From assembly GCF_044324875.1 (NCBI RefSeq), contig NZ_CP172185.1: 64,000 nucleotides of DNA, one strand, 5' to 3'. Both the position numbers and the translations under genes were made by a program. The notes under the pieces are model-generated. The model ran no database searches and had not been told where the DNA came from. It saw nothing but the letters and a program-made list of their open reading frames with translations. This DNA is from Escherichia coli. GTDB lineage: Bacteria > Pseudomonadota > Gammaproteobacteria > Enterobacterales > Enterobacteriaceae. Positions 15,705 to 31,322 of this stretch are shown here, piece after piece (positions within the stretch are counted from its first letter, which is position 1; each line of letters opens with the position of its first letter).

Positions 15705-16292
15705 TCAGTTAACTGAATCGATCCATTGCACACTGTCGGCGGAGAGCGTAAAGGGGGTAGGGGTGCAGATCGCCAGGCTTAAATTTTCTAGCTGACAATG
15801 GCTGACTGACAGTGATGAGTGATAGGTGCTGTCTACGCTGACGATTTGCCAGGCGCTGCCGCCACGCTGTTTAACGATGGCTTCTTTGCGCGTCCAGATG
15901 CGCCAGAACATTTCCAGTTGCTGATCGGGATGCACGGCGTCCATCTCAGCGTGTTCCCCGAGGCTGAACACGGCGTTCGCCAGCCAGCGCCAGTTGGCGC
16001 GCGGGCGAATCACTTCGATATCGCAGCCGACTTCGCCTTCATCGCTCAACAGCAGGGCGATATCGTCACCGCTATGGCTTAAGTTGAACCATAGCGGCGT
16101 TTCCGGCGCGAATGCCGGTTTGCCTTGTTCGCCATAGATGATCTCCGGTAGCGGGGAAAGCGTGTGCGAAAGTAATGCACGCCCCGCCAGCCAGCGTTCG
16201 CGTCGTGGACCTTGCGGTGCTTGATCGCGTAAAGCCGGTGGCAGTGGAGCTGCGCTTAAGGTCGAAACTTTCCCCAGAACTATCCGATACAT
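15705..16292 (-). CDS. acpT: 4'-phosphopantetheinyl transferase AcpT
   Basis: 195-aa product starting MYRIVLGKVSTLS; its start lies 1 bp after the stop of the upstream ketosynthase gene, so it is the terminal gene of the cluster transcription unit. Confidence 0.85.
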   Translation of the reverse strand: MYRIVLGKVSTLSAAPLPPALRDQAPQGPRRERWLAGRALLSHTLSPLPEIIYGEQGKPAFAPETPLWFNLSHSGDDIALLLSDEGEVGCDIEVIRPRANWRWLANAVFSLGEHAEMDAVHPDQQLEMFWRIWTRKEAIVKQRGGSAWQIVSVDSTYHSSLSVSHCQLENLSLAICTPTPFTLSADSVQWIDSVN

Positions 16293-16293
16293 A

Positions 16294-17523
16294 TCAGGGC
16301 CAACGTTTAATGATGATGGATGTATTAATGCCGCCAAAGGCAAAGTTGTTACTCTGCAAAAACTCACAATCAACCTTGCGGGCTTCATGCATGATGTAAT
16401 CCAGCGCGCCACAGTTCGGGTCTGGTTTATTCAGGTTTAGCGTAGGCGCAAACCAACCTTCGCGCATCATTTGCAGACTCATCCAGGCTTCGAGCGCGCC
16501 ACAGGCACCAAGCGTATGACCAAAATAACTTTTCAGCGAGGAGAGCGGCACATTATCACCGTAAATGGTTGCTGTCGCCAGACTTTCTGCCATATCACCA
16601 CGATCGGTCGCCGTACCATGCGCCGAAATATAGCCGATATCACTTGCACTTAACCCGGCGATTTTTAACGATTTTTCCATACAATATTGCATGGTCTCAC
16701 GCTGAGGCTGGGTAATATGTGCCGCGTCGCAGTTAGTCGCAAAGCCGACGATTTCACCGTAAATGGTCGCGCCGCGCGCTTTGGCGTGCTCCAGTTCTTC
16801 AAGAATCAGCGTACCTGCGCCTTCACCAATCACCAGCCCGTCGCGGTTTTCATCGAACGGTGAAGGTGTGGTTTTCGGCGCATCATTGTGCTGGCTGGTG
16901 GCGAAAAGTGTATCAAATACCGCTGCTTCTGAAGGGCATAACTCTTCGGCACCACCAGCAACCATCACCGTTTGATAACCGTGGCGAATGGCTTCCCACG
17001 CATAACCGATCGCCTGGCTGCCGGAGGTACAGGCGCTGGAGGTCGGGATCACCCGCCCGCGCAGGCCGAAAAACAGACCGGTATTAACGGCGGTGGTGTG
17101 CGGCATCATCTGTACATAGGTGGTGCCGGTGATGTTATTGGTGTGCTTTTCCGTCAGCATGGTGGCAAATTCGCTCACCGGACCGGTACTGCCGGTCGAT
17201 GAACCGTACGCAATGCCCGTTTCGCCGCTGGTTAATATCGGATCGCCAATCAATCCTGCCTGCTCTAACGCCAGCTCGCTGGCACGGGTCGACATTTGCG
17301 ACACGCGGCCCATCGCACGGATACGCTTGCGGGTGTAGTGCTCCGGTAGCGTGAAATCATCAACAGGCGCGCCAAGCAGGGTGTGCAGACCATCGTAGAC
17401 CTGCCACTCCGGCATTTTGCGCACTGCATTCTCATACGCCAGCAGACGCGCGGAAACGTCCTGCCAGTTTTCACCAAAGGCAGTCACGCCGCCCATTCCT
17501 GTAATCACTACGCGACGTGTCAT
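16294..17523 (-). CDS. Beta-ketoacyl-ACP synthase (FabB/FabF-like; ApeR-like by gene order)
   Basis: 409-aa thiolase-fold ketosynthase with active-site Cys (TSSACTSGS) and C-terminal His residues. Confidence 0.8.
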   Translation of the reverse strand: MTRRVVITGMGGVTAFGENWQDVSARLLAYENAVRKMPEWQVYDGLHTLLGAPVDDFTLPEHYTRKRIRAMGRVSQMSTRASELALEQAGLIGDPILTSGETGIAYGSSTGSTGPVSEFATMLTEKHTNNITGTTYVQMMPHTTAVNTGLFFGLRGRVIPTSSACTSGSQAIGYAWEAIRHGYQTVMVAGGAEELCPSEAAVFDTLFATSQHNDAPKTTPSPFDENRDGLVIGEGAGTLILEELEHAKARGATIYGEIVGFATNCDAAHITQPQRETMQYCMEKSLKIAGLSASDIGYISAHGTATDRGDMAESLATATIYGDNVPLSSLKSYFGHTLGACGALEAWMSLQMMREGWFAPTLNLNKPDPNCGALDYIMHEARKVDCEFLQSNNFAFGGINTSIIIKRWP

Positions 17524-18251
17524 AACATCCCTCCGTTGATGGAAATAACCTGGCGGGTGACGTAACCCGCAATATCAGACATTAAATAGCTGGCAAGCCC
17601 GGCAACTTCTTCCGCCTGGCCCATGCGTTTCATGGGGATCATCGACATTGCCTCTTTCAGGGCGCTCTCTTCCATTTCGATCATCCCGGTATCAATAAGC
17701 CCCGGCGCGATGCAGTTGACGGTGATTTTGCGCTTCGCGAGTTCGATAGCCAGTGCTTTTGTTGCGCCGATAATTCCGGCTTTGGCAGCGCTGTAGTTCA
17801 CCTGTCCGCGATTGCCCATCACGCCGGAAACCGAGGACAGCGTGATGATGCGTCCACCCTGGCGTGTGCCGATCATCGGCATAATGCACGGCTGAATAAC
17901 GTTGTAGAAACTGTCGAGATTGGTGTGGATCACCGCATCCCAGTCGTCATCGCTTAAAGCCGGAAAAGCGGCATCGCGGGCGATCCCGGCGTTACTAACC
18001 ACGCCGTACCAGGCACCGTTTTGCGCGATTTCGTGCTCCAGCACTTCCCGACACTGTTCGCGGTTTGCGACGTCGAAACTGAGCAAACGCCCGTTACCCC
18101 CGTTGGCGACAATGGCATTTAGCGTTTCCTGAGCGCCTGTGGCGTCACGGTGATAGTGAACGCCAATATTAAAGCCGTCTGCCGCCAGTTGGCAGGCGAT
18201 GGCGCGACCAATGCCTTTGCTGGCACCAGTAACCAGAACTGAACGACTCAT
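17520..18251 (-). CDS. 3-oxoacyl-ACP reductase, SDR family (FabG-like; ApeQ-like)
   Basis: N-terminal TGASKGIGRAIA Rossmann motif and YSAAK catalytic motif. Confidence 0.85.
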   Translation of the reverse strand: MSRSVLVTGASKGIGRAIACQLAADGFNIGVHYHRDATGAQETLNAIVANGGNGRLLSFDVANREQCREVLEHEIAQNGAWYGVVSNAGIARDAAFPALSDDDWDAVIHTNLDSFYNVIQPCIMPMIGTRQGGRIITLSSVSGVMGNRGQVNYSAAKAGIIGATKALAIELAKRKITVNCIAPGLIDTGMIEMEESALKEAMSMIPMKRMGQAEEVAGLASYLMSDIAGYVTRQVISINGGML

Positions 18252-18715
18252 CAGGACGCTCCTTGTTGAAACAGGGTGGTAAGTTCTTCCGCGGTCGGCT
18301 GGAAGGTGTTAATGCGGCCCGTTGCCGTGCCGTTGTTGATGCTGCACTCAAAACTGCCGAAGCGATCGTCTTGCATCAGGAGTTTGACGGTAATGGTCAG
18401 CGTCTGGCCTGCGGGCAGAATGCCAGCGGCGCAAAGCAATTCACGTGCGCCCAGTACCATCCCTAACTCAATACTGTTTTTGCCCTGCTGGTGGCGATGC
18501 CAGCCAGACCAGACGCCGACGGTTTGCGCCATCAATTCAAGGGCAAACCAGCCAGGGAGATTGCCGTCCGGGTCGAGAAACGGTGCCAGTACGCCACTGG
18601 GCGAGACCGTTACACGGCACACCGCGCTGTCATCGCTGACGCTCACCACTTCTTCCAGCAGTAACATGGGCGCGTCGTGGGGCAGATAAGCGCCGGGGGA
18701 TAAATAGTGGCTCAC
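18251..18715 (-). CDS. Hotdog-fold beta-hydroxyacyl-ACP dehydratase (FabA/FabZ-like; ApeP-like)
   Basis: 154-aa hotdog-fold protein between the KR and KS genes; 1-bp overlap with the reductase gene. Confidence 0.7.
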   Translation of the reverse strand: MSHYLSPGAYLPHDAPMLLLEEVVSVSDDSAVCRVTVSPSGVLAPFLDPDGNLPGWFALELMAQTVGVWSGWHRHQQGKNSIELGMVLGARELLCAAGILPAGQTLTITVKLLMQDDRFGSFECSINNGTATGRINTFQPTAEELTTLFQQGAS

Positions 18716-19890
18716 GAAACCCTCCCGAGCAGAATGCTGGCGTTATTGCCGCCAAAGGCGAAGGAATTGGACAGGATCACCGGACGTGCCAGCGGCTGTG
18801 GTTGTTCGATAATGCCGCACGGTGGCAGCGTGGGATCGCGCGGCGACAGGCTGAAGTCCTGAGCGGGCAGCGGTAAATCACGCTCTAAGATCAACATACT
18901 GATTGCCGCTTCGGTAATGCCCGCTGCGCCCAGCGTGTGTCCGGTCAAATGTTTGGTGGAGCTGCACGGTACGCGTTCGCCAAACAGGGCGTTTACCAGC
19001 ATCGATTCAATCTGGTCGTTGAGTTGTGTGGCGGTGCCGTGCAGGTTGATATAGCCCACCTCATCCGGCGTAAGCTGCGCATCAGCCAGCGCCTGGTTAA
19101 TGGCGCGAATTGCGCCTTCGCCCTGTGGATGCGGGGCCGAAATATGATAAGCGTCGCTCGATTCACCGACGCCCAGCAAGGCGATGGGCTGCGGTTCGCG
19201 GGTCAACAGCATCAGCCCCGCACCTTCGCCAATGGTGATGCCCGCGCGGTCACGACCAAACGGCTGACATAAGGTTGGCGAGAGCGATTCGAGGCTGTGA
19301 AAACCGTTAATCGGCATTCGGCTCAGGGTGTCTGCACCACCCACAATGGCGGCATCGACCAGCCCCGCCTCGATAAGCCTGCGCCCGCTGATCATCGCTC
19401 TGGCACTGGAGGAGCAGGCGGTTGAAAGGGTATAAGCTGGGCCGTCGAGCGCCAGCCAGTGGCTGAGAAAACGCGACGGATCGCCGAGCTCTTGTTGTGC
19501 ATAGTGCCACGTGGTGCTCGGCTGCCCGTGGGTGCGCAGGTTAACGTGCGTGTCGCCTTCATGCAGGCCGGAGGTGCTGGTGCCAAGCACAATCGCGATG
19601 CGCTCGCGGCCATATTTCGCAATAGCGTCATCAACCTGCGGCTGGATCTGCGCCAGCGCCGCCAGCAGGATCTGATTGTTGCGCGAGCGGTGCGCAGCGA
19701 ATTTTTCCGGGATAACCGGAAGCTCGCCATCCACGCCAGCCAGGACCGCCTGCGGATGCCCCTGCAACCAGCCTGCGCGCGGGCGCATGCCGGGAGCGAC
19801 ACCGCGAGTCAGGTTGGCTGCGATATCGTCAAGGTTATTTCCCAGGGCGTTGATCATGCCGACGGCGGAAATGTAAATCATATCAGTCAC
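18712..19890 (-). CDS. Beta-ketoacyl-ACP synthase (ApeO-like elongating ketosynthase)
   Basis: 392-aa ketosynthase with active-site Cys (STACSSS) and conserved His motifs. Confidence 0.8.
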   Translation of the reverse strand: MTDMIYISAVGMINALGNNLDDIAANLTRGVAPGMRPRAGWLQGHPQAVLAGVDGELPVIPEKFAAHRSRNNQILLAALAQIQPQVDDAIAKYGRERIAIVLGTSTSGLHEGDTHVNLRTHGQPSTTWHYAQQELGDPSRFLSHWLALDGPAYTLSTACSSSARAMISGRRLIEAGLVDAAIVGGADTLSRMPINGFHSLESLSPTLCQPFGRDRAGITIGEGAGLMLLTREPQPIALLGVGESSDAYHISAPHPQGEGAIRAINQALADAQLTPDEVGYINLHGTATQLNDQIESMLVNALFGERVPCSSTKHLTGHTLGAAGITEAAISMLILERDLPLPAQDFSLSPRDPTLPPCGIIEQPQPLARPVILSNSFAFGGNNASILLGRVS

Positions 19891-20467
19891 CTAAATATTG
19901 AATGGTGATGTGGTATTTAAAGACATGCTGTTCAATGCTGATTGGCACGCGTTTTCCCTGGCGATTCAGATAGGTGATTTCCGTGACCAGTTTGCCGCTG
20001 GCGTTACGCAGTTCGCGTTTGTCACCGTTGTCGCGAAGCGTCCATCCAGCGGGGAGTTGCGGTTGCCAGGCGCTAATCGGCCAGTGGCTAAGCATCACGT
20101 CAGCCAGCACCTGACTTGCGGGCGGCAACTGTGGGACGACGATGGATTGCTCGGCGCGTAGCCCTTGCGCATCGTAGGTCACCAGAAACAGACGAATGCC
20201 GACCGACGACAGCCCGGCAAGGGTGATTTTCTGGTCGTCGGCGTTAAGCATCACTAGCAGAGACTGGGTTTTGCCGTTGAAGCTGCCGCTCAATAGTTGC
20301 TGGGAATTAACGGCGGGCGAAATCCCTGGTGCCGGCAGCGTGATGCGCGTGCCAGGTTGCAGCCACGCCTGTGGGCGACCTTCCTGTTCCGGTTGCGAGT
20401 GGCTACAGCCGGTGAGGATAAGCGTAGCGGTCAGGGCGAACGCTCGCCAGAATGTGGGTTTGATCAT
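19883..20467 (-). CDS. Lipoprotein of the cluster export module (ApeN-like)
   Basis: Signal peptide with lipobox LTGC near the N-terminus; overlaps both flanking genes. Confidence 0.65.
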   Translation of the reverse strand: MIKPTFWRAFALTATLILTGCSHSQPEQEGRPQAWLQPGTRITLPAPGISPAVNSQQLLSGSFNGKTQSLLVMLNADDQKITLAGLSSVGIRLFLVTYDAQGLRAEQSIVVPQLPPASQVLADVMLSHWPISAWQPQLPAGWTLRDNGDKRELRNASGKLVTEITYLNRQGKRVPISIEQHVFKYHITIQYLGD

Positions 20468-22782
20468 TTTTTTGTTCTCTTTTTATCGGGCATAGCCAGC
20501 GGCGAAAGCAGGAAGGCGGTGAAAATACCGCTCACCAACACAATGCCAAAACTGCTGATGGCCTGGGTGGCGCTGAATACCAGCATTCCCAGCGCCAGCA
20601 AGGTGGTGAGCATTGCCAGCGTGATCGCCAGTAGGGAAGTTAACGGTGTACCGCGCGGATTACTGAAAAACAGCGTGTAATTGATGCCGATGCCAAGCAC
20701 CAGCACCAGCGCCAGTAGCGAAAAGAGATTCACCGCCTGCCCGCTCATCGCCAGCACTGCCAGACCGCAGCCCAGCGAAAGTACCGAAGGCACCAGGCTG
20801 ATAAGCCCTTTGCGCCAGCCGAGGCGGGCCACTGCGCCGCAGGCAATCACCGCCAGCGCCACCAGCAACAAACCGGTTAAGACGTAGCGGTAAAGTGCGA
20901 ACAACTCATCAAAGGTGCTTTTGCGATCAACCCAGGCAATGCCGCCAGGGTAATCGCTGGCGATTTCCTGCAACAACGCGCTACTTTTAACCCCTTCAAC
21001 CGGCACCAGTACGCCGCTTTCGCCGTTTTTCAGCGTCAGCCACAGCAGACGCCAGCCTTCACTGGCGGGGCTTGCCAGCCATTCATCGACCTTCACTGGC
21101 ATGGCGTTGAGATCCGGATTCACTGCCGCCAGCCCGGCATTTTGCAGTGCTTTTGTTACTGTCGGGGCAGCCGTTTTCAGCAGATGTAAATCTTCCTCCT
21201 GCCGCGCCAGGGAGTTCAGCGGAATGGTGCGGTAGTTGCTGATAAGCCCCTCTTTTTTCGCATTCTCCAGCGAGGCGGTAAATTTCTCCAGCCGCCGCAA
21301 TGTTTGCTGTGGAGAGTCGCCGTAAACTACAAACCATTTTTGATCGACGCTTTGTCCGGTCAGGGCGGTAATGGCTTTCTCTTGGGCCAGAATATGCTGC
21401 GGTAGCGCCTGTAACTGCGAGATATCGTCGTCGACGCGCAGCATTGACATCCCCGCCAGCGAAAACAGCGCCAGCGCGACGGGCAGACCCAGCGACAGTT
21501 TTTTATTACGCCGCCACGCAGCCAGCCAGCGCAGCATCAGCGCCATCGCCGGAACCGGACGCACCGGCAGGCCACGGCACAGCCACGGATGCCAGAACAG
21601 GACGGTCAGACAGGAGGCGCTCAACCCGACGGCGGCAAAAATCGCCATCTGGCGAATGCCGGGGAAGGGGGCGAGCATCATAATCAGATACGCCGCCACG
21701 GTGGTGAGCAGCGCCAGCAGCAGGGCATTGCGCACTTTCGCCAGGCTTTGCCACGGCGAAACGTCATTGCCGTGCACCATCCGCTCGGTGAGGTAATAGA
21801 GCGTGTAGTCAGCGGAAATGCCGATAACGCTCATGCTCATCACCAGCGTCATCAGGTGTAATTCGCCGAAAATCAACAAGGTGGCGACCGTTCCCGCCAG
21901 CGCGCCGATGCCGATGGAAATCACGCAAAGCAGCAATGGGCGTAAAGAGCGGAACACCGCCACAATCAGTAATATCACCCCCAGCAGCGTTGCCACGCCC
22001 AGGTTGGAGATATCCTGCTTCGCCTGTTGGCTGGCGTAATCGCTGTAAAACACCGTGCCGCGCGAGAGCAACTGCGCCTGCGGGTAACGCGTTTTCAGAT
22101 CCTTTTCCAGCGTATTCAGGGTCGTGATGAGCTGGTGGGTTTGCTGCATATCAAACGACGATCCCGCCAGTTCGCCGTGCAGCAGATACCAGTAGTTGCC
22201 CTGGGGATCCTGCGTCACCAGCCAGCCGTCCATCAGCCGCAAACGCTGGCCGTTTTTCGCCATCGCCAGCTGCGAGCCACGCATTAACATCAGCGGATCG
22301 TTTTGCAGCTCCTTACCGCTTACCCCGGAGAACGCAGAATAAAGCTGGGAGAGGATCCACTGCGCCTGCGCTTCGCCGCCGTTTTGCAGGCGCGCGCGGG
22401 TGTCGGGGTCAACCAGGCCGTTGCGGTGCTGCCAGAAAAACGCTCCCCACGCCTGCTGGCTGGCGGCATCCATTGGCCCTTTAACGTCGCCGAGCGCAGC
22501 GGATTTTTGCAGCAGCGTCAGCCACTCCTGAGCCACCCTGGGATTAGCCTCTTTACCGGGGCTGACCAGCCACACCAGTTGGCGGTCCAGACGCTGCATA
22601 AAGCCGTCATTCAGCGCTGGAGGAATATCGCCCATCGCCTGTTTGGGTAACATAGCCAGCACGCTACTGTTCAGTCGTGATTGCGGCAACAGGATCAGCA
22701 ACGCCGCCGCCATGACCAGGCAGACGATCCCCCATAACAGCGCCGGGCGTTTACTGGGCGGCAAAACGTTGGCGTTCGTCAT
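20464..22782 (-). CDS. MMPL/RND-superfamily exporter (ApeM-like)
   Basis: 772-aa protein with two blocks of transmembrane helices separated by large soluble domains, typical of MMPL-type lipid exporters. Confidence 0.8.
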   Translation of the reverse strand: MTNANVLPPSKRPALLWGIVCLVMAAALLILLPQSRLNSSVLAMLPKQAMGDIPPALNDGFMQRLDRQLVWLVSPGKEANPRVAQEWLTLLQKSAALGDVKGPMDAASQQAWGAFFWQHRNGLVDPDTRARLQNGGEAQAQWILSQLYSAFSGVSGKELQNDPLMLMRGSQLAMAKNGQRLRLMDGWLVTQDPQGNYWYLLHGELAGSSFDMQQTHQLITTLNTLEKDLKTRYPQAQLLSRGTVFYSDYASQQAKQDISNLGVATLLGVILLIVAVFRSLRPLLLCVISIGIGALAGTVATLLIFGELHLMTLVMSMSVIGISADYTLYYLTERMVHGNDVSPWQSLAKVRNALLLALLTTVAAYLIMMLAPFPGIRQMAIFAAVGLSASCLTVLFWHPWLCRGLPVRPVPAMALMLRWLAAWRRNKKLSLGLPVALALFSLAGMSMLRVDDDISQLQALPQHILAQEKAITALTGQSVDQKWFVVYGDSPQQTLRRLEKFTASLENAKKEGLISNYRTIPLNSLARQEEDLHLLKTAAPTVTKALQNAGLAAVNPDLNAMPVKVDEWLASPASEGWRLLWLTLKNGESGVLVPVEGVKSSALLQEIASDYPGGIAWVDRKSTFDELFALYRYVLTGLLLVALAVIACGAVARLGWRKGLISLVPSVLSLGCGLAVLAMSGQAVNLFSLLALVLVLGIGINYTLFFSNPRGTPLTSLLAITLAMLTTLLALGMLVFSATQAISSFGIVLVSGIFTAFLLSPLAMPDKKRTKK

Positions 22783-23356: not shown

Positions 23357-23775
23357 GGTTTGACTCCCATGCGTTCAAACAAAATATCGGGGCTGACAAA
23401 GCACAGTTCGCGGCTTTGCTCGTCGACCGCGACCTGAATGGTGTATCCGGTGGTGGCGCGTTTGCCCGTTTCGGCATCGAAAATCTGATAGCCAATCCGC
23501 AGACGGTTTTCGAACTCTTCGATATGTGCACGCACGCGGATGCGTTGCTCAAAGGTGAGGGCGTGGCGATATTTCACCCGCGCATCGACCACTGGCCACA
23601 AATAACCGGACTCTTTCATCTGCCGATAGCCGTAATTGAACTGGTTGAGCAGCGCCTCGCGGGCCACTTCAAAGTAGCGAAAATAGTTACCGTGCCAGGC
23701 CACGCCCATCATATCGACGTCGTGAAAGGGAATGGTCAGCTCGACTTCAGCGGTAAATCGGGGATCGTTAAGCAC
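23353..23775 (-). CDS. Hotdog-fold acyl-CoA/acyl-ACP thioesterase (4HBT-like; ApeK-like)
   Basis: 140-aa protein resembling YbgC/4-hydroxybenzoyl-CoA thioesterase family members. Confidence 0.7.
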   Translation of the reverse strand: MLNDPRFTAEVELTIPFHDVDMMGVAWHGNYFRYFEVAREALLNQFNYGYRQMKESGYLWPVVDARVKYRHALTFEQRIRVRAHIEEFENRLRIGYQIFDAETGKRATTGYTIQVAVDEQSRELCFVSPDILFERMGVKP

Positions 23776-23778
23776 CCT

Positions 23779-25455
23779 TTACTCCTTGTCCTGGACTTCC
23801 GGCAGTTGCCAGAAATCGAAAAAATTAAACCAGTCGAGGGGCGACTGGAGCGCGTAATGTTCCAGACGCGCGGCGTAATGATCGATAGCGTTTTGCAGCG
23901 CCTGCTGGCGTTCGCCACGCGGCAACAGCAGCGGGTCGGCAAAGGTTTCGCAGTGAATATGCAGCTTGCCGTGCTGGCGCAGGGCGAAAATCAGATTCAC
24001 CGGGCAGCGCAAAATAGACGCAAGAATAAACGGCCCCTGTGGGAAAGGCGCAGGCTGGCCCATAAACGGACTCCAGCAGACGCGCCAGTCGCCGCCGCGT
24101 TGCGGGTTGACGGCGATGCGGTCACCGACAATCGCCACCCATTCGCCGTTATCCAGCTTCTCTTTCAGCAGGATGGCGGTTTCCGGGCCGATATCTGTTA
24201 CCGGGAGCAGGTTGATGCCTGCCTGCGGGGCCATCTCCTGCATTATCTGTTTAAAGCGTTGGGCGTTTTCGCTAAACACCAGCGCGTTAATGGTTTTGTA
24301 GCCCTGAATTTTTGCCAGCGCCCGGCACACTTCCACATCGCCAAGATGCGAGGCCAGCAGCAATTTGCCGCGCGGATCGCTGACGTTAAGTGCCGCTTCT
24401 GCGCCTGGTGCAAACAGCACATCACGCCCGAGTTGCAGCTCGCCGCGCCAGCTGGCGATTTTGTCGAGCATGGCGTTGCCGAAACGTAGAAAATGCTGAT
24501 AGCTGTTGAGTTTTGCTGCCTGTGGTTGTTGTTGGCGCACACGGGCGAGCCAGTCTTGCGACGCTTTACGTGCACGAGCAGCGGTGAGCCAGTAGACGCC
24601 CACCACCGGGTAAAGCAGCGCGGTAAACGCAGTTCTTCCCAGCAGACGCCAGACCAGCAGCATCAGGCGCATTCCCCATAACCCTTTCACTTCGCTCTGC
24701 CGCGCCCAGTGGCTGGAAGAGTGGCGCATCAGCAGTGAAGGAATACGCGGCAACATGCCGAAAAACAGACGTGTGTGCATCAGCGAGATGCGGACGTTAT
24801 CTTTCAGGGCATCAAAATGCGAAAGCCCGTCCAGCGGATAGGTGACGCGGGTCGGCACGAAATAACTGGTATTTCCCTGCCAGTAGAGGCGCACCATCAC
24901 TTCGGTGTCAAAATCCATCCGCTTGCCGATGGTAGCGTATTTTGCCAGTTGCAGCGTTGGCGCAACCGGATAAACGCGAAAGCCGCACATACTGTCTTTC
25001 AGTTGCAGGGAGAGCGTTTCGATCCATACCCACACGTGGGTGACCCAGCGCCCGTACAGCCGTGAGCGGGGGATGGAGTCATCGTAAATCGGCTGGCCGG
25101 AGATCAGCGCCGCAGGCTGCTGTTCAGCGAGTGCCAGCAGTTTAGGGATGTCTTCAATCGCGTGCTGACCGTCAGCATCCACCTGCACCGCATGGCTGAA
25201 GCCCGCGTCTGCCGCTGCCTGTAAGCCACGCATCACTGCCGCGCCTTTGCCTGCGTTTTCTGCCAGGCGAATTAAGGTCACGCCAGGCTGTTCGGCAACC
25301 AGATTATCCAGTTGCTGTTGCGTGGCGGCATCGCTGCCGTCATCCACTACAATACAGGGCAGATTAAATGGCTTAAGACGCGCCAGCACGCCCGGCATCA
25401 TCGCGCCGTGGTTGTAGCAGGGGATCAACACGCAGGGAGAAAAGTTTACCGACAT
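23779..25455 (-). CDS. Bifunctional glycosyltransferase family 2 / lipid A-type acyltransferase fusion (ApeJ-like)
   Basis: 558 aa: N-terminal GT-A fold features (VDDGSDAAT, DADGQH) followed by a C-terminal domain resembling lauroyl/myristoyl (HtrB/LpxL-type) acyltransferases. Confidence 0.7.
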   Translation of the reverse strand: MSVNFSPCVLIPCYNHGAMMPGVLARLKPFNLPCIVVDDGSDAATQQQLDNLVAEQPGVTLIRLAENAGKGAAVMRGLQAAADAGFSHAVQVDADGQHAIEDIPKLLALAEQQPAALISGQPIYDDSIPRSRLYGRWVTHVWVWIETLSLQLKDSMCGFRVYPVAPTLQLAKYATIGKRMDFDTEVMVRLYWQGNTSYFVPTRVTYPLDGLSHFDALKDNVRISLMHTRLFFGMLPRIPSLLMRHSSSHWARQSEVKGLWGMRLMLLVWRLLGRTAFTALLYPVVGVYWLTAARARKASQDWLARVRQQQPQAAKLNSYQHFLRFGNAMLDKIASWRGELQLGRDVLFAPGAEAALNVSDPRGKLLLASHLGDVEVCRALAKIQGYKTINALVFSENAQRFKQIMQEMAPQAGINLLPVTDIGPETAILLKEKLDNGEWVAIVGDRIAVNPQRGGDWRVCWSPFMGQPAPFPQGPFILASILRCPVNLIFALRQHGKLHIHCETFADPLLLPRGERQQALQNAIDHYAARLEHYALQSPLDWFNFFDFWQLPEVQDKE

Positions 25456-25829
25456 AGGCGGATCTTCCCGCTACTGGCGGTGTGGCGGGCGTCACCGTCG
25501 TGACGCTGATAGCTAAAGCTCAGAATCTGGCGTTCTTCCTGCCAGTTAAGCGTGAGCGTGACGCGGTTGTCCGGCAGCAACGGGGACTGGAATTTGATGT
25601 TCTGAATAGAGTGAAAACGCCAGCCAGGCGCGAGCAGAGTGAGCGCGTAGCTCATCGCCCAGTCGATTTGTGCAACTCCTGGGAGTAACGGCTGCACGGC
25701 AAAATGGCCGCGAAACCAGAACAGATCTGCCCTGAGATGCAAAACAATCTCAAGGTGATTCGCTTGTGCCTGATGGCGCTCGATTTCATGGGGCTTCATG
25801 AAATAACTCCTGTAATTGCGCATAGACAC
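25446..25829 (-). CDS. Hotdog-fold dehydratase (ApeI-like)
   Basis: 127-aa hotdog-like protein overlapping both neighbours. Confidence 0.6.
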   Translation of the reverse strand: MSMRNYRSYFMKPHEIERHQAQANHLEIVLHLRADLFWFRGHFAVQPLLPGVAQIDWAMSYALTLLAPGWRFHSIQNIKFQSPLLPDNRVTLTLNWQEERQILSFSYQRHDGDARHTASSGKIRLCR

Positions 25830-27147
25830 GCTTGTTCATACTGTTTACTGGCATTTCATCAATAACGCGCCAGTAACGCGGAATAGCAACTGGCTCCAGC
25901 GTCGGGCGCAGTAATCGCCGCCAGGTCATTTCCTGGCTATGCCCGCCGCCGTTCTGCCATTGCAGGCGAGCTTCGTCATCCAGCACCAGCAAAACGCCGA
26001 TGCTCTGACGCCCGCCGCGCGTAACGGGAACTGCCGCCGCCTCGCGAATGCCGTCCAGCGCCAGCAGACGTTGTTCTACTTCCTGCAGAGAAATACGTTT
26101 TTCTTCAATCTTAACGATGCGCCCACGACGCCCCATCAGATGGAACTGACCGTCCTGGCTAAACTGCAAGAGATCATCGAGTAACAGGCCGTTATCTTCC
26201 GCTATCAGCGGTGAAAAGAGACGAAATGCTTCACCTTCGGCCTGGAAGTGCATACCTGGAAAGGGCAGCCAGCGGCGTTGCTCTTGTTCGCGGTAACGCC
26301 AGGCAATGACGCCGGTTTCCGTGCTGCCGTAGATTTCATCAGGCCAGACGCGCAGCCAGCTCGCGGTGTGTTTTACGTCCTGCCACGGCAGCTCACCGCC
26401 AGCAGAGAGAAGCACCTGAACGGGCGGCGGAGAAAGCTGGGTATCCAGCCGTTTCAAAAATGCCGGGCTGCTGATGAAGATATAGCGATGCTGGTGACTC
26501 AATGCGGCAAACTGTTCGACATACCAGAGCATGGCGGCGTGCAGCGGTAATCCCAGCGCCATTGGCAGGAAAACGCGAAAAGTCAGGCCGTACAGATGCT
26601 GCGGCAATACGGAACCGACGACACGACATCCGGCAAGACGTGCGCCTAATCGTTCAGCCAGCAGTTCTGCTTCACGGTCCAGCAAATGAACAGGTTTAAT
26701 TACCCGCTTTGGCTGCCCCGTAGAACCGGAGGTAAATAGCTCGATATAAGCGTCTGGCGCTATAGCGGCAAAGGTGAATGATTGTGTCGCGACTTGTGGG
26801 GAACTTGCTACCAACAGCAATGAACCTTGCCAGTTAAGATCGCTGTCGCTAAGTACACCATCGAACAGTTCACGTTGTTCATTAAGCTGGATGACACGGT
26901 TATGCCCCGGAAGCACCGGCGTTTTTCCGGCGTGTAGCGTGGCAAGCAGGGCAACGATAAACAAATAACTGTTCTCAAAGCACAGCGCCCAGCGTTCACC
27001 CGGCTGTTGCTGCAAGCGGCAGATAAGTTGCGCGACATCGTGACGCAAATCGCCCAGTGTCCACGAGCTTTCGTCCAGCCACGCAATGGGCGTGTCATCA
27101 GGGCGTGGCGCAGTCAGCCAGCGTGCAAGCGGTAAGGTCTGCTTCAT
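25786..27147 (-). CDS. AMP-dependent synthetase/ligase, acyl-ACP synthetase-like (ApeH-like, likely aryl starter activation)
   Basis: Adenylate-forming enzyme motifs (TSGSTGQPK AMP-binding motif); start set at the ATG at 27147, immediately after the upstream gene stop, rather than the ORF-track start at 27186. Confidence 0.75.
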   Translation of the reverse strand: MKQTLPLARWLTAPRPDDTPIAWLDESSWTLGDLRHDVAQLICRLQQQPGERWALCFENSYLFIVALLATLHAGKTPVLPGHNRVIQLNEQRELFDGVLSDSDLNWQGSLLLVASSPQVATQSFTFAAIAPDAYIELFTSGSTGQPKRVIKPVHLLDREAELLAERLGARLAGCRVVGSVLPQHLYGLTFRVFLPMALGLPLHAAMLWYVEQFAALSHQHRYIFISSPAFLKRLDTQLSPPPVQVLLSAGGELPWQDVKHTASWLRVWPDEIYGSTETGVIAWRYREQEQRRWLPFPGMHFQAEGEAFRLFSPLIAEDNGLLLDDLLQFSQDGQFHLMGRRGRIVKIEEKRISLQEVEQRLLALDGIREAAAVPVTRGGRQSIGVLLVLDDEARLQWQNGGGHSQEMTWRRLLRPTLEPVAIPRYWRVIDEMPVNSMNKRVYAQLQELFHEAP

Positions 27148-27725
27148 GAGCGATCTCTTTTTATCACCTGACGGCGCACCAGCCATTCACCTGCCATTAA
27201 CGTTCCCATCAAAAAATAAGCAATCATGCCGTTCCAGGCGGTCCATAACGACATATCGCCATAAAGCGCGGTAAAGAGGGCAATTCCGCCGTTAATGATG
27301 AAAAAGCCGCACCAGATTTGCGTGACACGGCGGGTATAGCGCACGCCCTTTTCCGGGAGGTCTGGCTCCTGCAAACGTGCCAGCCGCTCAACTATCGGCA
27401 TTGTCGACCACAGCGAACCGCCAAAAACCGCCAGCATGATCGCGTTAACCACTACCGGGTAAAACAGCAGTAGCTGGTGCGTTTTCAACAGAAAGCTGGC
27501 GACACACAATGCGATGCCCACGACAGCGACGATTTGTGTGACGGCTTGTAGCGGCCCCGCCCGGCGACGGGTCTGGCGCAGGCGCAACAATAGCAGCAAC
27601 GCTATTAGCGGCAACAACCAGTGCAGGCCGTTATGCGCCAGGCCAAACCAAATCACAAACGGCCAGGCGAGCAGCAATAATCCAGTCAGCAGCTTAATCA
27701 TCGGTAGCGAGCGAATGCCCGACAT
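27144..27725 (-). CDS. Integral membrane protein of the cluster (ApeG-like)
   Basis: 193-aa hydrophobic protein with several predicted transmembrane helices. Confidence 0.6.
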   Translation of the reverse strand: MSGIRSLPMIKLLTGLLLLAWPFVIWFGLAHNGLHWLLPLIALLLLLRLRQTRRRAGPLQAVTQIVAVVGIALCVASFLLKTHQLLLFYPVVVNAIMLAVFGGSLWSTMPIVERLARLQEPDLPEKGVRYTRRVTQIWCGFFIINGGIALFTALYGDMSLWTAWNGMIAYFLMGTLMAGEWLVRRQVIKRDRS

Positions 27726-27729
27726 CAGA

Positions 27730-27981
27730 TCAGGCTTCTTGTAGCAGGCGTTCTACAGCCTCTACGACATCCTGAACTGTGCGCACTGCTTTAAACTCTT
27801 CCGGCTTGATTTTCTTACCGGTTTTCTTTTGCAGGTGCACAATCATGTCAACGGCGTCGATGCTGTCCAGTTCCAGATCTTCGTACAGGCGCGCTTCAGG
27901 TTTGATGTCCTGCGGATCGATTTCAAACAGCTTAACCAGCAGGGCTGAGACTTCCTGATAGACGGTTTGTTGTTCTGTCAT
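27730..27981 (-). CDS. Acyl carrier protein (second of a tandem pair; ApeF-like)
   Basis: 83-aa protein with the phosphopantetheine attachment motif LELDSIDAVD. Confidence 0.85.
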   Translation of the reverse strand: MTEQQTVYQEVSALLVKLFEIDPQDIKPEARLYEDLELDSIDAVDMIVHLQKKTGKKIKPEEFKAVRTVQDVVEAVERLLQEA

Positions 27982-27992
27982 GATGGCTTTCC

Positions 27993-28250
27993 TCAGGCGC
28001 GTTGCGCAGCAATGAAAGAGGCCAGAGTGGCGACGGAGAAAAAGTGCTGACGCATCTCTTCGCTTTCGGCTGAGAGCACCACGCCGTACTCATTTTTTAC
28101 TGCCAGTCCCAGTTCCAGGGCATCGATGGAATCCAGTCCTAAACCGTCGCCGAACAGCGGCGCATCGGTCTCGATATCATCAGGAGTCAACTCGTCCAGA
28201 TTGAGGGTGCTGATGATGAGGTTTTTAATTTCCAGATAAAGCGCTTGCAT
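27993..28250 (-). CDS. Acyl carrier protein (first of a tandem pair; ApeE-like)
   Basis: 85-aa protein with motif LGLDSIDALEL around the conserved Ser. Confidence 0.85.
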   Translation of the reverse strand: MQALYLEIKNLIISTLNLDELTPDDIETDAPLFGDGLGLDSIDALELGLAVKNEYGVVLSAESEEMRQHFFSVATLASFIAAQRA

Positions 28251-29064
28251 TATTTATTCCTGAGAGAGGTAAACAACCTTGTTGTAATAGAAGCAAAAGA
28301 TGCCGGTTTAACTGCCTTGCTGCCAGCGCCGGTTCTTGTGAAGTTGCATCGTAAAATTTATTGATTTCAACCCGACCATGGACTTCAACCGTAAAAAACG
28401 GCCGGTCAGGTGGAACGTCATACCATTTACTTTGTTTATCCAGCAGATGCTCGCTACAGCCGATCGTCACGATGCGTAAATCGCTGGCACAGCGCACGGC
28501 AATATTCGCCGCCCCGCGCTGCAGCGTCATTTTTTCACCGGGCTTCGTTCGCGTGCCTTCGGGGAAAATCAGGATAGTGTCACCCTGTGCCAGTCGCTGT
28601 TGGCAGCGGGGTAACAGGGTTTCAGCTTCGCTGTTGATTAAATAATCTACCGCCCGCACGACGCCGCCAAGAAAAGGATTTTTTAACAGCGCGCTTTTCA
28701 CCAGGCAGTCAGTTTCTGGCATGACTGACGCCAGCAGCACGTAATCGATCAGCGTGGGATGATTGGCTACGACGAGGCAACCGCGTTCCTGACGTAAAAT
28801 TTCAGCGCCATCAATACGATAATCCAGCACGCCAAGCCCTTTCGCGACAGTTAAAAACAGGCGAAAACTGGCGGCAATGCTGCGACGCGCCAAACGACGG
28901 CGGCGGGAAGTATCCCACACCAAAACTAACAATATGTTAAACCACACGACAGAAAGCAGCAGGCCGCCGAGACCAAACAGGGCAAAACATAACCCGGTCA
29001 TGACCAGTCGCCAGGTCCACTCCAGACGTGACATCAGCTTACTCATCTGCGGCTCCAGCGCCAT
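28225..29064 (-). CDS. Lysophospholipid acyltransferase family protein (PlsC/LPLAT-like; ApeD-like)
   Basis: N-terminal transmembrane segment and acyltransferase motifs (NHPTLIDY, FPEGTR). Confidence 0.75.
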   Translation of the reverse strand: MALEPQMSKLMSRLEWTWRLVMTGLCFALFGLGGLLLSVVWFNILLVLVWDTSRRRRLARRSIAASFRLFLTVAKGLGVLDYRIDGAEILRQERGCLVVANHPTLIDYVLLASVMPETDCLVKSALLKNPFLGGVVRAVDYLINSEAETLLPRCQQRLAQGDTILIFPEGTRTKPGEKMTLQRGAANIAVRCASDLRIVTIGCSEHLLDKQSKWYDVPPDRPFFTVEVHGRVEINKFYDATSQEPALAARQLNRHLLLLLQQGCLPLSGINNASALSGN

Positions 29065-29789
29065 TGCACGCGCTCGCCAGGCAGTGAAAATGCGTCTGCA
29101 TTTTGTAAATAATGCTGTAAAAACAACATGCTTTGCGGCAGTGATGTTTCATTGCCCGCAATGGCTGACTGCGTTTCACATTGCCAGTCATCGCCAGATT
29201 CAATCACCAGCGCGACGGCGTACGGCCAGGTCGGCATTTCTGATGGCAGTTGTGGGTGATAAAACTCGGGCAGAAAACCGTCAAAATCGACCATCAACAC
29301 GCGCTGGTATCCCGCTTGTAACAGGCTAAGCACTTCACACAAACCTTGCTGGAAAGTGTCGCGACCAGCAGAAAGCGATGACGAAACTATCGGCTGTTTG
29401 GCCGCAATGGTCAGGTTACCCACGGAAGAGTTGTGTACGGAGAGCGCGAAGTCGGTCGGAGAAAGCGCCTGTTCGGTTGCCAGTGCATGAACAATGCGGT
29501 AATTGCGCTCCAGTTCGCCATGACGACTGGTATACAAAACGGCGTCTGGCTGATGGCGGCGTAGCATTGCCAGACCGCATTCAACAGCCAGTTTGCTGCC
29601 TGAACTAAGGCGGCGGGCGGTCATCATTGGCAGTTCACTTAATTTTGCCAACGGCGCGGCAGGGTCAATCGCCCACGGCTGGCGCGACCATGCTTGCCAT
29701 TGCTGCGCTTCGCTAAGTCCAGGCGCCAGTGCCTGCCAGTCGGTAATATTTAATGTAAATTTCATCAACGCGCGCCCGCGGTAAACCAA
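29043..29789 (-). CDS. Ketosynthase-related protein lacking an obvious active-site Cys (chain-length-factor-like; ApeC-like)
   Basis: 248-aa protein with thiolase-fold similarity, shorter than a canonical KS; pairs with the upstream KS in this cluster type. Confidence 0.6.
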   Translation of the reverse strand: MVYRGRALMKFTLNITDWQALAPGLSEAQQWQAWSRQPWAIDPAAPLAKLSELPMMTARRLSSGSKLAVECGLAMLRRHQPDAVLYTSRHGELERNYRIVHALATEQALSPTDFALSVHNSSVGNLTIAAKQPIVSSSLSAGRDTFQQGLCEVLSLLQAGYQRVLMVDFDGFLPEFYHPQLPSEMPTWPYAVALVIESGDDWQCETQSAIAGNETSLPQSMLFLQHYLQNADAFSLPGERVQWRWSRR

Positions 29790-29805
29790 AATTATTAAGT
29801 GACGA

Positions 29806-30873
29806 TTATTTCTTTTGGCATATCAAAAGTGTATGCCCAACGCCTAAATTATCGTGGCGCTCTGCTACCTGGAATCCTGCTTTATTCAGATAGTCGTAAA
29901 ATTTCTCTGCACTATAGAAACGGCTGTTACCGTTTGCCATGCAGGTAAAATAAAGTGAGGACGCGTTCAGGCTAAATGATGCTGCTTCAAACCGCTGCGC
30001 ATCCCAGAACAACTCCATGATGCAAACTTTTGCGCCAGGCTTCATTACGCTGGCGATTTTGCTGAGTATGCTAATTATTTGTTCGGGTGAAAAACAGTCT
30101 AAAAATTGGCTCATCCACCAGATATCAGCCTCGCCCGGTAATGGGGCATCGCTTAGCATATCCACCGCATGGAAATCTATGCGATCAGAAAAACCTGCAT
30201 TCGCGATATTTTCTTTCGCTAGTACGATTTGTTGTGGCAGATCTAATAACGTCACGGCGATGTTTTCATTGTATTTGCAGCAACGCAAAGCCCACTTACC
30301 CGTATTGCCGCCTACATCGTACAATGTTGTGGGGTTGTTGGCGAATACATAAGGCAGTGCGGCGTTAAATGCGCCATCTGAATAGTAATGATCAAACGCA
30401 AACCAGCTTTCACGAGCGGCGTCTGGTAATTGTGAAAGTGCCGGATATATCGTCGACCAGTCGCCAAATACTTTTAACCCGGACGGTTTTCCTTCATTGA
30501 GTGAATCGGCGAGGAAGAAGAGCCCCTGGTAACAGACATCCTGGGTGAAATCCATATTCACGCGAGTCATAGTGTCATGCAGGAGGTAATGACCGATTTT
30601 CGCCAGGTAATACATTCCCTCTTTACAGGTAATAATTCGCCCGCTTAAGCCCATATCTAACAGAACGCTGGCCGCATATTCGTTGATATGGCTATGTTCG
30701 GTGATATCAGCCAGCGTTGCGCCATGTTTGCCTTGCCGATCCAGATATGAAAGTACACCCGCATTACGTAGGCAGAGTGCTGTTTGAAAAAGCATAGGGG
30801 CAAAGGCAATGCGTTGAGCTTCGGTAATCGCATCCAGTGCGCTAAGAGAATCCTGTTCGTACATGTTGGGCAC
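29806..30873 (-). CDS. SAM-dependent O-methyltransferase (ApeB-like)
   Basis: 355 aa with a class I methyltransferase Rossmann motif (LYDVGGNTG). The ORF-track start is a GTG at 30873; the ATG at 30864 is an alternative. Confidence 0.75.
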   Translation of the reverse strand: MPNMYEQDSLSALDAITEAQRIAFAPMLFQTALCLRNAGVLSYLDRQGKHGATLADITEHSHINEYAASVLLDMGLSGRIITCKEGMYYLAKIGHYLLHDTMTRVNMDFTQDVCYQGLFFLADSLNEGKPSGLKVFGDWSTIYPALSQLPDAARESWFAFDHYYSDGAFNAALPYVFANNPTTLYDVGGNTGKWALRCCKYNENIAVTLLDLPQQIVLAKENIANAGFSDRIDFHAVDMLSDAPLPGEADIWWMSQFLDCFSPEQIISILSKIASVMKPGAKVCIMELFWDAQRFEAASFSLNASSLYFTCMANGNSRFYSAEKFYDYLNKAGFQVAERHDNLGVGHTLLICQKK

Positions 30874-30932
30874 AACCTGTTAAGAGGGAATTAAATTATT
30901 ATCGGACCGCAGCGGCCCGACTTTAGGAAGAA

Positions 30933-31322
30933 TTATAAATCTGCGCCCGCTGACAAATTCAGTTGAATATCTTTGTCGAGATTGCGGACCCAGCGATTGT
31001 AGTTTTTATGAATTTGTCCGCCTGACGCTTGTAGGTTCTGGCTATTTTCATAATTGATATCGTAGCTGGATGCCGTGTAGTTAATGCGAATTTCGGCTGA
31101 ATGATCGCGTGACTGTTGACGTGCTTTAATTACGCCTTGTCCGGCTTCGGACATAATCCATTTGCGTTCAACGCCAGCTTTCAGAATCGCTTTTTTCACT
31201 TGTTCCTGGGTATGACCAGCGCTGACGGTTGAGTGAACCTGATCAATTGGCGCAGTACGCGCGCAACCCGCTAAAGCACCCACAACAGCAATAGCCGCAA
31301 ACCATTTCATGTAATGTCTCAT
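30933..31322 (-). CDS. Small lipoprotein, first gene of the cluster (ApeA-position)
   Basis: 129-aa ORF with signal peptide and lipobox LAGC; AT-rich promoter-like region upstream. Confidence 0.6.
   Translation of the reverse strand: MRHYMKWFAAIAVVGALAGCARTAPIDQVHSTVSAGHTQEQVKKAILKAGVERKWIMSEAGQGVIKARQQSRDHSAEIRINYTASSYDINYENSQNLQASGGQIHKNYNRWVRNLDKDIQLNLSAGADL

Follow-up and report, generated by a model that had tools for sequence, protein, structure and literature searches.

The acpT-linked apeA–apeR cluster of an Escherichia coli chromosome: gene identity, distribution and putative aryl-polyene lipid product

Results and Discussion

Within the window (64,000 nucleotides of Escherichia coli DNA), the interval 15705–31322 is very probably the known E. 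coli aryl-polyene (APE) lipid cluster apeA–apeR, in its chromosomal acpT-linked copy of the O157:H7 type. Nineteen genes were found there, all co-directional on the minus strand: acpT (15705–16292) and 18 ape genes (16294–31322; Table 1). An earlier note had spoken of seventeen genes and listed 18 functions; the list was right and the count was not. The present analysis established what the genes are, that they are intact and orthologous, and how they are ordered and distributed; for enzymology and physiology it relies on published work with the orthologues from CFT073 and X. doucetiae.

Table 1. Features of the acpT–ape interval and its flanking spacer, with assignments, matches and motifs.
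Feature	Position	Strand	Length (aa)	Assignment	Matches and motifs
acpT	15705..16292	-	195	Sfp-type 4'-phosphopantetheinyl transferase	NCBIfam AcpT equivalog NF007676, 395 bits (cutoff 174); GCDIE, WTRKEAIVK; annotated acpT in identical genome
apeR	16294..17523	-	409	Ketosynthase (KS), reported as initiation KS	NCBIfam NF006587, 777 bits; PDB 7F27 (A. baumannii ApeR), E = 7e-158; Cys/His/His motifs SSACTSG, AHGTAT, FGHTLG; 99% identity to CFT073 ApeR
apeQ	17520..18251	-	243	3-Ketoacyl-ACP reductase	TIGR01831 FabG2, 474 bits (cutoff 339); TGASKGIG, YSAAK
apeP	18251..18715	-	154	Dehydratase	PDB 6QSR chain B, E = 4e-48; PF22817 (ApeP-like) in orthologues
apeO	18712..19881	-	389 (from annotated ATG)	Elongating ketosynthase, partner of ApeC	PDB 6QSP chain A, E = 4e-176; NF006618, 557 bits; TACSSS, LHGTAT, TGHTLG
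apeN	19883..20467	-	194	DUF3261 lipoprotein, proposed LolB-like	Lipobox LTGC; annotated DUF3261; PF11659 in orthologues
apeM	20464..22782	-	772	MMPL/RND-type transporter	NCBIfam HAE3, HpnN, MMPL; PF03176 in orthologues
apeL	22751..23356	-	201	LolA-like periplasmic carrier	TIGR00547 LolA; NF053544 flexirubin LolA2; N-terminal signal peptide
apeK	23353..23775	-	140	Hot-dog thioesterase	YbgC/FadM family; 99% identity to CFT073 protein
apeJ	23779..25455	-	558	Fusion: N-terminal GT2 glycosyltransferase, C-terminal LpxL-like putative acyltransferase	PF00535 at residues 8–130, E = 9e-20
apeI	25446..25799	-	117	Dehydratase, ApeP partner; inside block diverging from CFT073	PDB 6QSR chain A, E = 1e-39; PF22818 (ApeI-like) in orthologues
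apeH	25786..27147	-	453	Adenylate-forming enzyme loading aryl starter	AMP-binding and 4-coumarate-CoA-ligase-like; TSGSTGQPK, YGSTETG
apeG	27144..27725	-	193	Polytopic membrane protein	COG4648 in recent RefSeq annotation
apeF	27730..27981	-	83	Acyl carrier protein (ACP)	NF003757, 146 bits; serine motif LDSID
apeE	27993..28250	-	85	Acyl carrier protein (ACP)	NF006617, 90 bits; serine motif LDSID
apeD	28225..29046	-	273	LPLAT-family acyltransferase	TIGR00530 AGP acyltransferase domain; PF01553 in orthologues
apeC	29043..29765	-	240	Chain length factor (CLF)	PDB 6QSP chain B, end to end, E = 7e-93; PF13723 in orthologues
apeB	29806..30864	-	352	SAM-dependent methyltransferase	NF053543 FlxJ family, 475 bits, E = 1e-142 (under the 560-bit equivalog cutoff)
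apeA	30933..31322	-	129 (125 from GN06156-annotated ATG)	Small lipoprotein	Lipobox LAGC
yhhT-apeA spacer	31323..31701	-		Presumed promoter region	AT-rich, about 42% GC

Identity and layout of the cluster

E. coli GN06156 is 100% identical over the interval, and the same genes are given in the RefSeq annotation of the identical genome; the nikA-acpT/yhhT locus of O157:H7 (96.6% DNA identity) is the same locus, as had been proposed. O157:H7 has the same gene set and the same apeH allele type, with proteins 94–100% identical, and differs by allelic divergence only (about 5% across apeH); its acpT-adjacent locus in ST11 has already been named an APE cluster (PMC9205054). In the strain of the window, unlike O157:H7, the neighbouring yhhT is disrupted by IS1.

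At 11 of the 18 junctions stop and start overlap, by 1–32 nt, and at the remaining seven the genes are separated by 1–68 nt, in agreement with the frequent overlaps noted earlier; between the apeR stop codon (16294–16296) and the acpT start codon (16290–16292) lies the single nucleotide 16293, exactly the 1-bp spacing that had been claimed. In both the order and the content of its genes the interval is colinear with apeA–R of the characterised CFT073 cluster, and the match of the chain of open reading frames to the ape cluster is far beyond chance.

The functions named in the earlier note were recovered. NCBIfam models matched the methyltransferase, the LPLAT protein, both carrier proteins, the ligase, the thioesterase, the LolA-like protein, the MMPL protein, two ketosynthases, the ketoreductase and AcpT; the chain length factor and both dehydratases matched the solved ApeC, ApeP and ApeI chains; both lipoproteins carry lipoboxes. 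No Cys-His-His motifs are visible in the ApeC translation. For the predicted GT2-acyltransferase fusion ApeJ the support is direct in the GT2 half and indirect in the other: no family matched the C-terminal half directly; among 22 homologues with identities near 50%, PF03279 matched 9, the H-x4-E motif (SHLGDVE) is invariant, and the assignment of this half as a putative acyltransferase is thereby indirectly confirmed. ApeG matched nothing in Pfam or NCBIfam and is annotated in other genomes as "COG4648 family protein" (83% identity to CFT073); the evidence for its function is indirect. ApeA (65% identity to CFT073 ApeA, 99% to O157) gave no family match in the NCBIfam model search; its deletion in CFT073 left the pigment in place, the gene being dispensable (PMC8253772).

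All 18 Ape proteins align full-length with their CFT073 and O157 counterparts, and the cluster is therefore intact. The sequence upstream of apeA yielded no convincing promoter, the one sigma-70-like site (31516–31488) being not above chance; the yhhT-apeA spacer bears no relation to the sequence preceding the CFT073 copy (29–34% identity in a forced alignment). A silent or decaying remnant, giving no product in the present lineage, would fit this lack of an above-chance promoter, the broken yhhT and the loss of the cluster from about 85% of E. coli genomes; it is nevertheless very unlikely, given 18 full-length reading frames with the catalytic motifs intact in the translations, retained translationally coupled overlaps and 569 complete genomes with both junctions intact. 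Under laboratory conditions an APE cluster may stay silent: that of X. doucetiae required an inserted promoter (bioRxiv 10.1101/2020.12.19.423268), and a constitutive APE+ strain was used in the CFT073 work.

acpT and activation of the carrier proteins

The acpT-adjacent cluster of O157:H7 reportedly supplied the AcpT substrates of De Lay and Cronan (2006), who are also reported to have labelled it "O-island 138". The spacing of 1–2 nt between apeR and acpT is kept in Citrobacter, Klebsiella, Enterobacter and Pantoea; the yhhT-ape-acpT order is found in Citrobacter rodentium, Klebsiella and Enterobacter, and Pantoea retains the apeR-acpT adjacency with a different upstream flank. AcpT has been reported to activate the O157 ApeE and ApeF homologues in vitro (PMC8253772), which together with the adjacency in four other genera upholds the proposal that AcpT is the cognate transferase. 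Were the adjacency accidental, AcpT would serve another pathway and AcpS or EntD would activate ApeE and ApeF. Three observations favour this: acpT occurs in 5,425 of 5,426 genomes and any ape cluster in only about 15%, the island copies in CFT073, ESL0689 and Edwardsiella have no transferase of their own, and a yejM defect with lowered LPS content is suppressed when acpT is overexpressed (PMC8745692). The conserved spacing, kept in Pantoea despite its different flank, the in vitro activation and the function of the CFT073 cluster in K-12, where acpT remains, make it highly improbable.

Proposed pathway and product

With AcpT as the activating enzyme, ApeE and ApeF would be converted into their holo forms; 4-hydroxybenzoate would be adenylated by ApeH and loaded directly onto ApeE. 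The chain would be initiated by ApeR and elongated with malonyl units by the ApeO:ApeC KS:CLF heterodimer, each cycle including reduction by ApeQ and dehydration by ApeI:ApeP, to give a conjugated hexaene. The phenol ring would be methylated by ApeB, with chain release or editing perhaps due to ApeK; ApeD and ApeJ would join the chromophore to a glycerol-phosphate-sugar lipid, and ApeG, ApeM, ApeL and ApeN would carry this lipid to the outer membrane. Both the structure of the lipid and the roles given to ApeD, ApeJ, ApeG, ApeL, ApeM and ApeN follow bioRxiv 10.1101/2020.12.19.423268.

FabF-, FabG- and FabZ-like enzymes, carrier proteins and LPLAT- and LpxL-like acyltransferases would suit a generic accessory cluster for fatty acids or lipid A modification ("fatty acid biosynthesis-like" in the original annotation) that makes no polyene. 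This is scarcely credible for a cluster that shares 94–99% identity with a demonstrated APE(Ec) producer and encodes, besides its chain length factor, a FlxJ-type methyltransferase and an adenylating enzyme of the aryl-acid type; enoyl reductase is absent, so that double bonds would be kept.

The Xenorhabdus doucetiae ape cluster has the same apeA–R architecture in another genus, with more divergent sequences (against its solved chains, ApeO, ApeC, ApeP and ApeI of the window gave E = 1e-39 to 4e-176). Flexirubin and xanthomonadin products are ester-linked dialkylresorcinol or halogenated compounds, and genes for either are absent from the present cluster; those pathways likewise use a reducing type II PKS to lengthen an aryl starter, and the NCBIfam FlxJ, FlxB and LolA2 models match ApeB, ApeQ and ApeL, all below equivalog cutoffs. 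For X. doucetiae, in vitro reconstitution, structures 6QSP (ApeO-ApeC; PMC8358021) and 6QSR and an APE lipid structure are available, and its chromophore was reported to be identical to the CFT073 product (bioRxiv 10.1101/2020.12.19.423268).

Two cluster lineages in E. coli

The CFT073 APE(Ec) cluster (c1204-c1186; Johnston et al. 2021, PMC8253772) has the same 18 genes, order and overlaps, and 14 of its 18 proteins are 94–99% identical to those in the window; ApeH, ApeI, ApeG and ApeA are 67%, 72%, 83% and 65% identical, apeH being the most divergent gene (97% ApeH identity to O157). It lies in an integrase-associated island near dgcT (1,143,727–1,158,748) with no adjacent phosphopantetheinyl transferase; the earlier note was unaware that the experimentally studied copy occupies another chromosomal position and has no acpT beside it. 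This island copy is the only one used for functional work in E. coli.

Among 5,426 complete E. coli genomes, the acpT-linked copy was found in about 569 and the island copy without acpT (CFT073, Nissle) in about 250–260. The lineages diverge in a roughly 1.8-kb apeI-apeH-apeG block (25520–27320) and in apeA (about 65% DNA identity); elsewhere they are 92–99% identical. Allele type is paired almost perfectly with locus type (566 versus 569 genomes; 259 versus about 251).

This pairing, the sharp local divergence and the 67% identity of the starter-selecting ApeH would be expected if the block altered the aryl starter or chain processing, to give an APE distinct from APE(Ec). Such a product is unlikely: ApeH is generally the fastest-evolving Ape protein (68–73% between genera), its adenylation motifs are intact, and the more distant X. 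doucetiae cluster, whose ApeC shows many substitutions in an end-to-end alignment, makes a chromophore reported to be identical to that of CFT073. The allele in the window probably makes the same product as its orthologues.

Loss from K-12 and other strains

The absence of the cluster from K-12 was borne out: MG1655 has yhhT, a 54-bp spacer and acpT. The spacer retains the last 19 nt of apeR and is therefore a deletion scar; the same two breakpoints were found in all sampled empty-site genomes. The site between yhhT and acpT is the ancestral chromosomal site of the ape cluster, and a single acpT-sparing deletion very probably removed the 15-kb cluster from K-12 and from about 85% of all E. coli genomes.

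Conclusion

The cluster is an already-described, ordinary E. coli gene set for yellow aryl-polyene membrane lipids; each part of the earlier interpretation is supported and has already been published. The distinction of two lineages, acpT-linked and island, is only a modest addition to published knowledge. The CFT073 cluster gave a yellow pigment in K-12 Top10, and protection against H2O2 and promotion of biofilm were also reported for it (PMC8253772); an APE lipid in the outer membrane would quench reactive oxygen species and promote biofilm formation.

Layout of the locus

Translation of the window gave an unbroken run of ORFs, all on the minus strand, across the aryl-polyene (APE) cluster and acpT (see the table). 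In the RefSeq annotation of GN06156, an E. coli genome 100% identical over this stretch, acpT is followed upstream by 18 genes (apeA-apeR), all between nikA and yhhT; counted from the annotated starts, neighbouring genes overlap by 1-32 nt at 11 of the 18 junctions and are separated by 1-68 nt at the other 7. The chain of co-directional, overlapping genes described in the earlier note was confirmed by the translations and this annotation; its count of seventeen was wrong, its own list named the correct 18 functions, and the interval with acpT holds 19 genes. The spacing of 1 bp that it gave between the last ketosynthase gene and acpT agrees with the 1 nt measured between the apeR stop codon and the acpT start codon. 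GC content of the cluster is 55-60%, higher than that of the flanks. Plus-strand ORFs within the cluster (at most 382 aa) had no family matches and were treated as artefacts of GC-rich coding sequence.

Outside the cluster, the window is ca. 98% identical to GN06156, the differences including an IS1 and a small indel. A target duplication of 9 bp flanks this complete IS1, which splits yhhT (AI-2E family transporter) ca. 690 bp upstream of apeA; GN06156 lacks the element. The spacer between tusA and zntA is ca. 450 bp shorter than in GN06156, where it carries an extra 309-nt hypothetical gene, and resembles K-12. RyhB was the sole Rfam match in the window (RF00057, 83 bits; gathering score 55).

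Coordinates of features in the window
Feature	Position	Strand	Remarks
GntR regulator, PTS IIA/IIB/IIC, FGGY kinase, HPr-like protein, class II aldolase	4475-10083	-	next to nikR; rhsB at this position in a K-12-like strain
acpT	15705-16292	-	
ape cluster with acpT	15705-31322	-	
1-nt spacer and last 19 nt of apeR, incl. stop codon	16293-16312		identical to first 20 nt of the K-12 spacer
Breakpoints of empty-site genomes	16312; 31706		
Longest plus-strand ORF within cluster (382 aa)	23341-24489	+	
ApeJ C-terminal half	23782-24741	-	320 residues, no direct match
5' part of apeI, whole apeH, 3' part of apeG	~25520-27320		~65% DNA identity to CFT073
5' end of apeB, apeA, upstream region	~30660 to ~31700		~65% DNA identity to CFT073, then unrelated
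IS1 target duplication	32005-32013; 32782-32790		CATTGGCGG
IS1	32014-32781		768 bp
insA	32069-32344	+	
insB	32263-32766	+	
tusA-zntA spacer	36622-36738		
tssD and yrhA region	61088-62757	-	GC 30-34%; 392-aa ORF = GN06156 tssD (Hcp1-family type VI effector), 164-aa ORF = yrhA
RyhB small RNA	63632-63696	+	

Enzymes of the cluster

Ketosynthases and chain length factor: ApeO and ApeR are two full ketosynthases (NCBIfam NF006618, 557 bits; NF006587, 777 bits), and the motifs of the Cys-His-His triad are readable in both translations. ApeC, annotated in RefSeq as 'beta-ketoacyl synthase chain length factor', is half-size. In a search of solved structures ApeO matched 6QSP chain A (E = 4e-176), ApeC matched 6QSP chain B end to end (E = 7e-93), ApeP and ApeI matched 6QSR chains B (E = 4e-48) and A (E = 1e-39), and ApeR matched 7F27 (E = 7e-158); 6QSP is ApeO-ApeC of X. 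doucetiae and 7F27 is ApeR of A. baumannii (PMC8358021). The cluster is thereby tied directly to biochemically studied Ape proteins.

Carriers, reduction and putative starter loading: ApeE and ApeF are tandem acyl carrier proteins (NF006617 and NF003757, both over cutoff), each with the phosphopantetheine-accepting serine in the motif LDSID. ApeQ is a ketoreductase (TIGR01831, FabG2, above cutoff; motifs TGxxxGIG and YxxxK). ApeH, the putative aryl-acid-loading enzyme, belongs to the AMP-binding, 4-coumarate-ligase-like family and carries the core motif TSGSTGQPK; it is 67% identical to the enzyme of CFT073, and the search of solved structures returned no relative. No enoyl reductase was found among the 18 gene products by RefSeq annotation and NCBIfam, and the 18 genes include no cyclase or aromatase. 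An aromatic (non-reducing) type II PKS was ruled out on the latter absence together with the presence of a ketoreductase and dehydratases; these, acting in every cycle, make the system a reducing, FAS-like type II PKS.

Tailoring and export: NCBIfam matched ApeB to the FlxJ-family methyltransferases, ApeD to the LPLAT acyltransferases, ApeJ to a GT2 domain, ApeK to the YbgC-type thioesterases, ApeL to LolA / flexirubin LolA2 and ApeM to the MMPL/RND transporters; these matches fit the functional labels proposed in the earlier note. ApeD, ApeJ, ApeG, ApeL, ApeM and ApeN form a lipid-attachment and export module with LPLAT, GT2, LolA, MMPL and DUF3261 (ApeN) matches; ApeG had no significant Pfam match. 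Lipoboxes are present in ApeA and ApeN.

ApeJ: The label 'GT2-acyltransferase fusion' held directly for the N-terminal half (GT2 domain, Pfam 9e-20) and indirectly for the C-terminal half. The latter matched nothing in Pfam or NCBIfam, and nothing in the PDB with a 7-sequence profile; hhalign against E. coli LpxL gave a probability of 0.2%, and the AlphaFold2 model, built from a shallow alignment, reached a pLDDT of 38, too low for use. Of 22 ApeJ homologues at 48-52% identity, 9 matched PF03279 (LpxL-type lipid A acyltransferases), those of Aeromonas and Grimontia (ca. 50%) among them, and an H-x4-E motif is invariant across the homologues; the fusion is thus supported through its relatives. 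As PF03279 was reached only via homologues of ca. 50% identity, the enterobacterial C-terminal half seems to represent an LpxL-like subfamily that has diverged.

Comparison with the characterised clusters

CFT073, the E. coli strain of the studied APE cluster, carries apeA-R (c1204-c1186), 18 genes in 15.5 kb, without a PPTase of its own (Johnston et al., PMC8253772). Transferred into K-12 Top10, this cluster gave a yellow pigment that required most core genes, apeA being dispensable; protection against H2O2 and more biofilm were also reported (PMC8253772). Lit. data for the product, CFT073 and X. doucetiae: cell-bound yellow pigment near 430 nm, aryl-hexaene carboxylate after hydrolysis (PMC8253772; bioRxiv 10.1101/2020.12.19.423268); the late steps and the final lipid structure were described by Grammbitter et al. 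(bioRxiv 10.1101/2020.12.19.423268).

The window cluster is colinear with that of CFT073 gene for gene, and all proteins aligned at full length; together with the matches to 6QSP, 6QSR and 7F27 this bears out the APE-type architecture recognised earlier. By analogy with these relatives, the window allele would be expected to yield the APE pigment reported for CFT073 and X. doucetiae. The neighbourhood asserted for O157:H7 was also found: the cluster lies there at the same locus, next to acpT, with 96.6% DNA identity. That locus has already been named an APE cluster (PMC9205054); in the literature searched, 'OI-138' occurred as the name of an island, without description. The earlier observation is thus confirmed and its interpretation supported; published work already covers the cluster, its product class, the AcpT link and the loss from K-12.

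AcpT and its link to the cluster

The acpT product scored 395 bits with NCBIfam NF007676 (cutoff 174) and contains the motifs GCDIE and WTRKEAIVK. According to the account in PMC8253772, De Lay and Cronan (2006) found that AcpT activates the O157:H7 homologues of ApeE and ApeF in vitro; by extension from these homologues, AcpT would phosphopantetheinylate ApeE and ApeF of the window allele.

Linkage was surveyed on contigs from other genera that encode ApeH homologues. The order tusA-yhhQ-dcrB-yhhS-yhhT-[apeA..apeR]-PPTase was found in Citrobacter rodentium, Klebsiella and Enterobacter ludwigii, where the PPTase gene starts 1-2 nt after apeR; Pantoea allii has other upstream flanks, yet the same junction of apeR and PPTase. 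The PPTases (PF01648) that follow apeR in these four genera share 64-82% identity with AcpT. In Edwardsiella piscicida and the bee-gut isolate ESL0689 the cluster has other neighbours and no PPTase accompanies it. Judged from the arrangement shared across genera, the acpT-linked order is ancestral in Enterobacteriaceae, and acpT behaves like the cluster's final gene.

Among 5,426 complete E. coli genomes acpT was present in 5,425, and any ape cluster in only ca. 15%; so wide a retention of an orphan PPTase suggests that AcpT has a further role beyond the ape cluster. Overexpression of acpT suppresses a yejM defect (PMC8745692).

Empty site in K-12 and origin of the locus

The absence of the cluster from K-12, as stated in the earlier note, was confirmed: in MG1655, yhhT (b3474) is separated from acpT (b3475) by a spacer of 54 bp, the first 20 nt of which are the apeR end and intergenic nucleotide listed in the table. 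The other 34 nt (GAAAATGAAAGTGCGTATCGTATCACTTGTCGCC; 6609-6642 of the K-12-like empty-site locus L002) matched neither the window nor the ape loci retrieved for comparison. All sampled empty-site genomes break at the same two positions, which points to removal of the cluster by a single deletion that spared acpT. The title of the 2006 paper by De Lay and Cronan agrees with such a deletion.

Horizontal acquisition of the cluster as an 'O-island' was considered and rejected: the annotation of GN06156 shows no integrase or tRNA gene between nikA and yhhT, direct and inverted repeats at the cluster borders are limited to short chance matches, the order yhhT-ape-acpT recurs in three other genera, and K-12 retains a deletion scar. 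The cluster is an 'island' relative to K-12 only.

Two APE lineages in E. coli

The single point that goes beyond the earlier note is a split into two lineages. At least 80% of the cluster was present in 820 of the 5,426 complete genomes. Both junctions, acpT-apeR and apeA-yhhT, were intact in 569, and apeH of the window type was found in 566; apeH of the CFT073 type, which includes Nissle 1917, was found in 259, and the island-borne copy of CFT073 and Nissle in ca. 250-260. With 566 vs 569 and 259 vs ca. 251, allele type tracks locus type almost perfectly. The CFT073 copy lies at 1,143,727-1,158,748, on an island that starts with an integrase, adjoins dgcT and carries no PPTase, whereas the window copy lies at acpT.

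Along the alignment with CFT073, DNA identity is 92-99% outside two places, the block from apeI to apeG and the apeA end with its upstream region (see the table). Fourteen window Ape proteins are 94-99% identical to those of CFT073; the others are ApeH (67%), ApeI (72%), ApeG (83%) and ApeA (65%). The island copy of ESL0689 has ApeA (89%), ApeH (87%) and ApeI (84%) of the CFT073 type, and its remaining Ape proteins, except ApeG (83%), share ca. 90-95% identity with either E. coli type. This pattern would fit an island-borne lineage in which recombination with the resident copy has evened out part of the sequence.

The acpT-linked lineage, which includes O157:H7, has a putative starter-loading enzyme and an upstream region unlike those of the studied copy, and its apeI-apeH-apeG block could change starter choice or regulation, giving a different APE or different control. 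Such a change is improbable. Two facts speak against a chemical difference: among the Ape proteins, ApeH shows the lowest conservation from genus to genus anyway (68-73%), and the more distant cluster of X. doucetiae is reported to make a chromophore identical to the CFT073 product (bioRxiv 10.1101/2020.12.19.423268).

The spacer between yhhT and apeA (379 bp) is AT-rich; a hairpin lies just past the end of yhhT, and a single weak sigma-70-like site is present. Promoter and terminator scans of 15400-32000 gave 13 hits (11.4 expected) and 27 hits (20.5 expected), respectively; as these counts are at chance level, nothing is concluded on regulation.

All functional work in E. coli has used the island copy of CFT073, and the acpT-linked lineage is the commoner one; given its distinct ApeH, ApeI, ApeG and ApeA alleles and upstream region, conclusions on product and regulation drawn from CFT073 should be tested before they are transferred to it. 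APE lipids, as pigments of the outer membrane, guard cells against oxidative stress and favour biofilms; for pathogenic E. coli the cluster is therefore a fitness factor.
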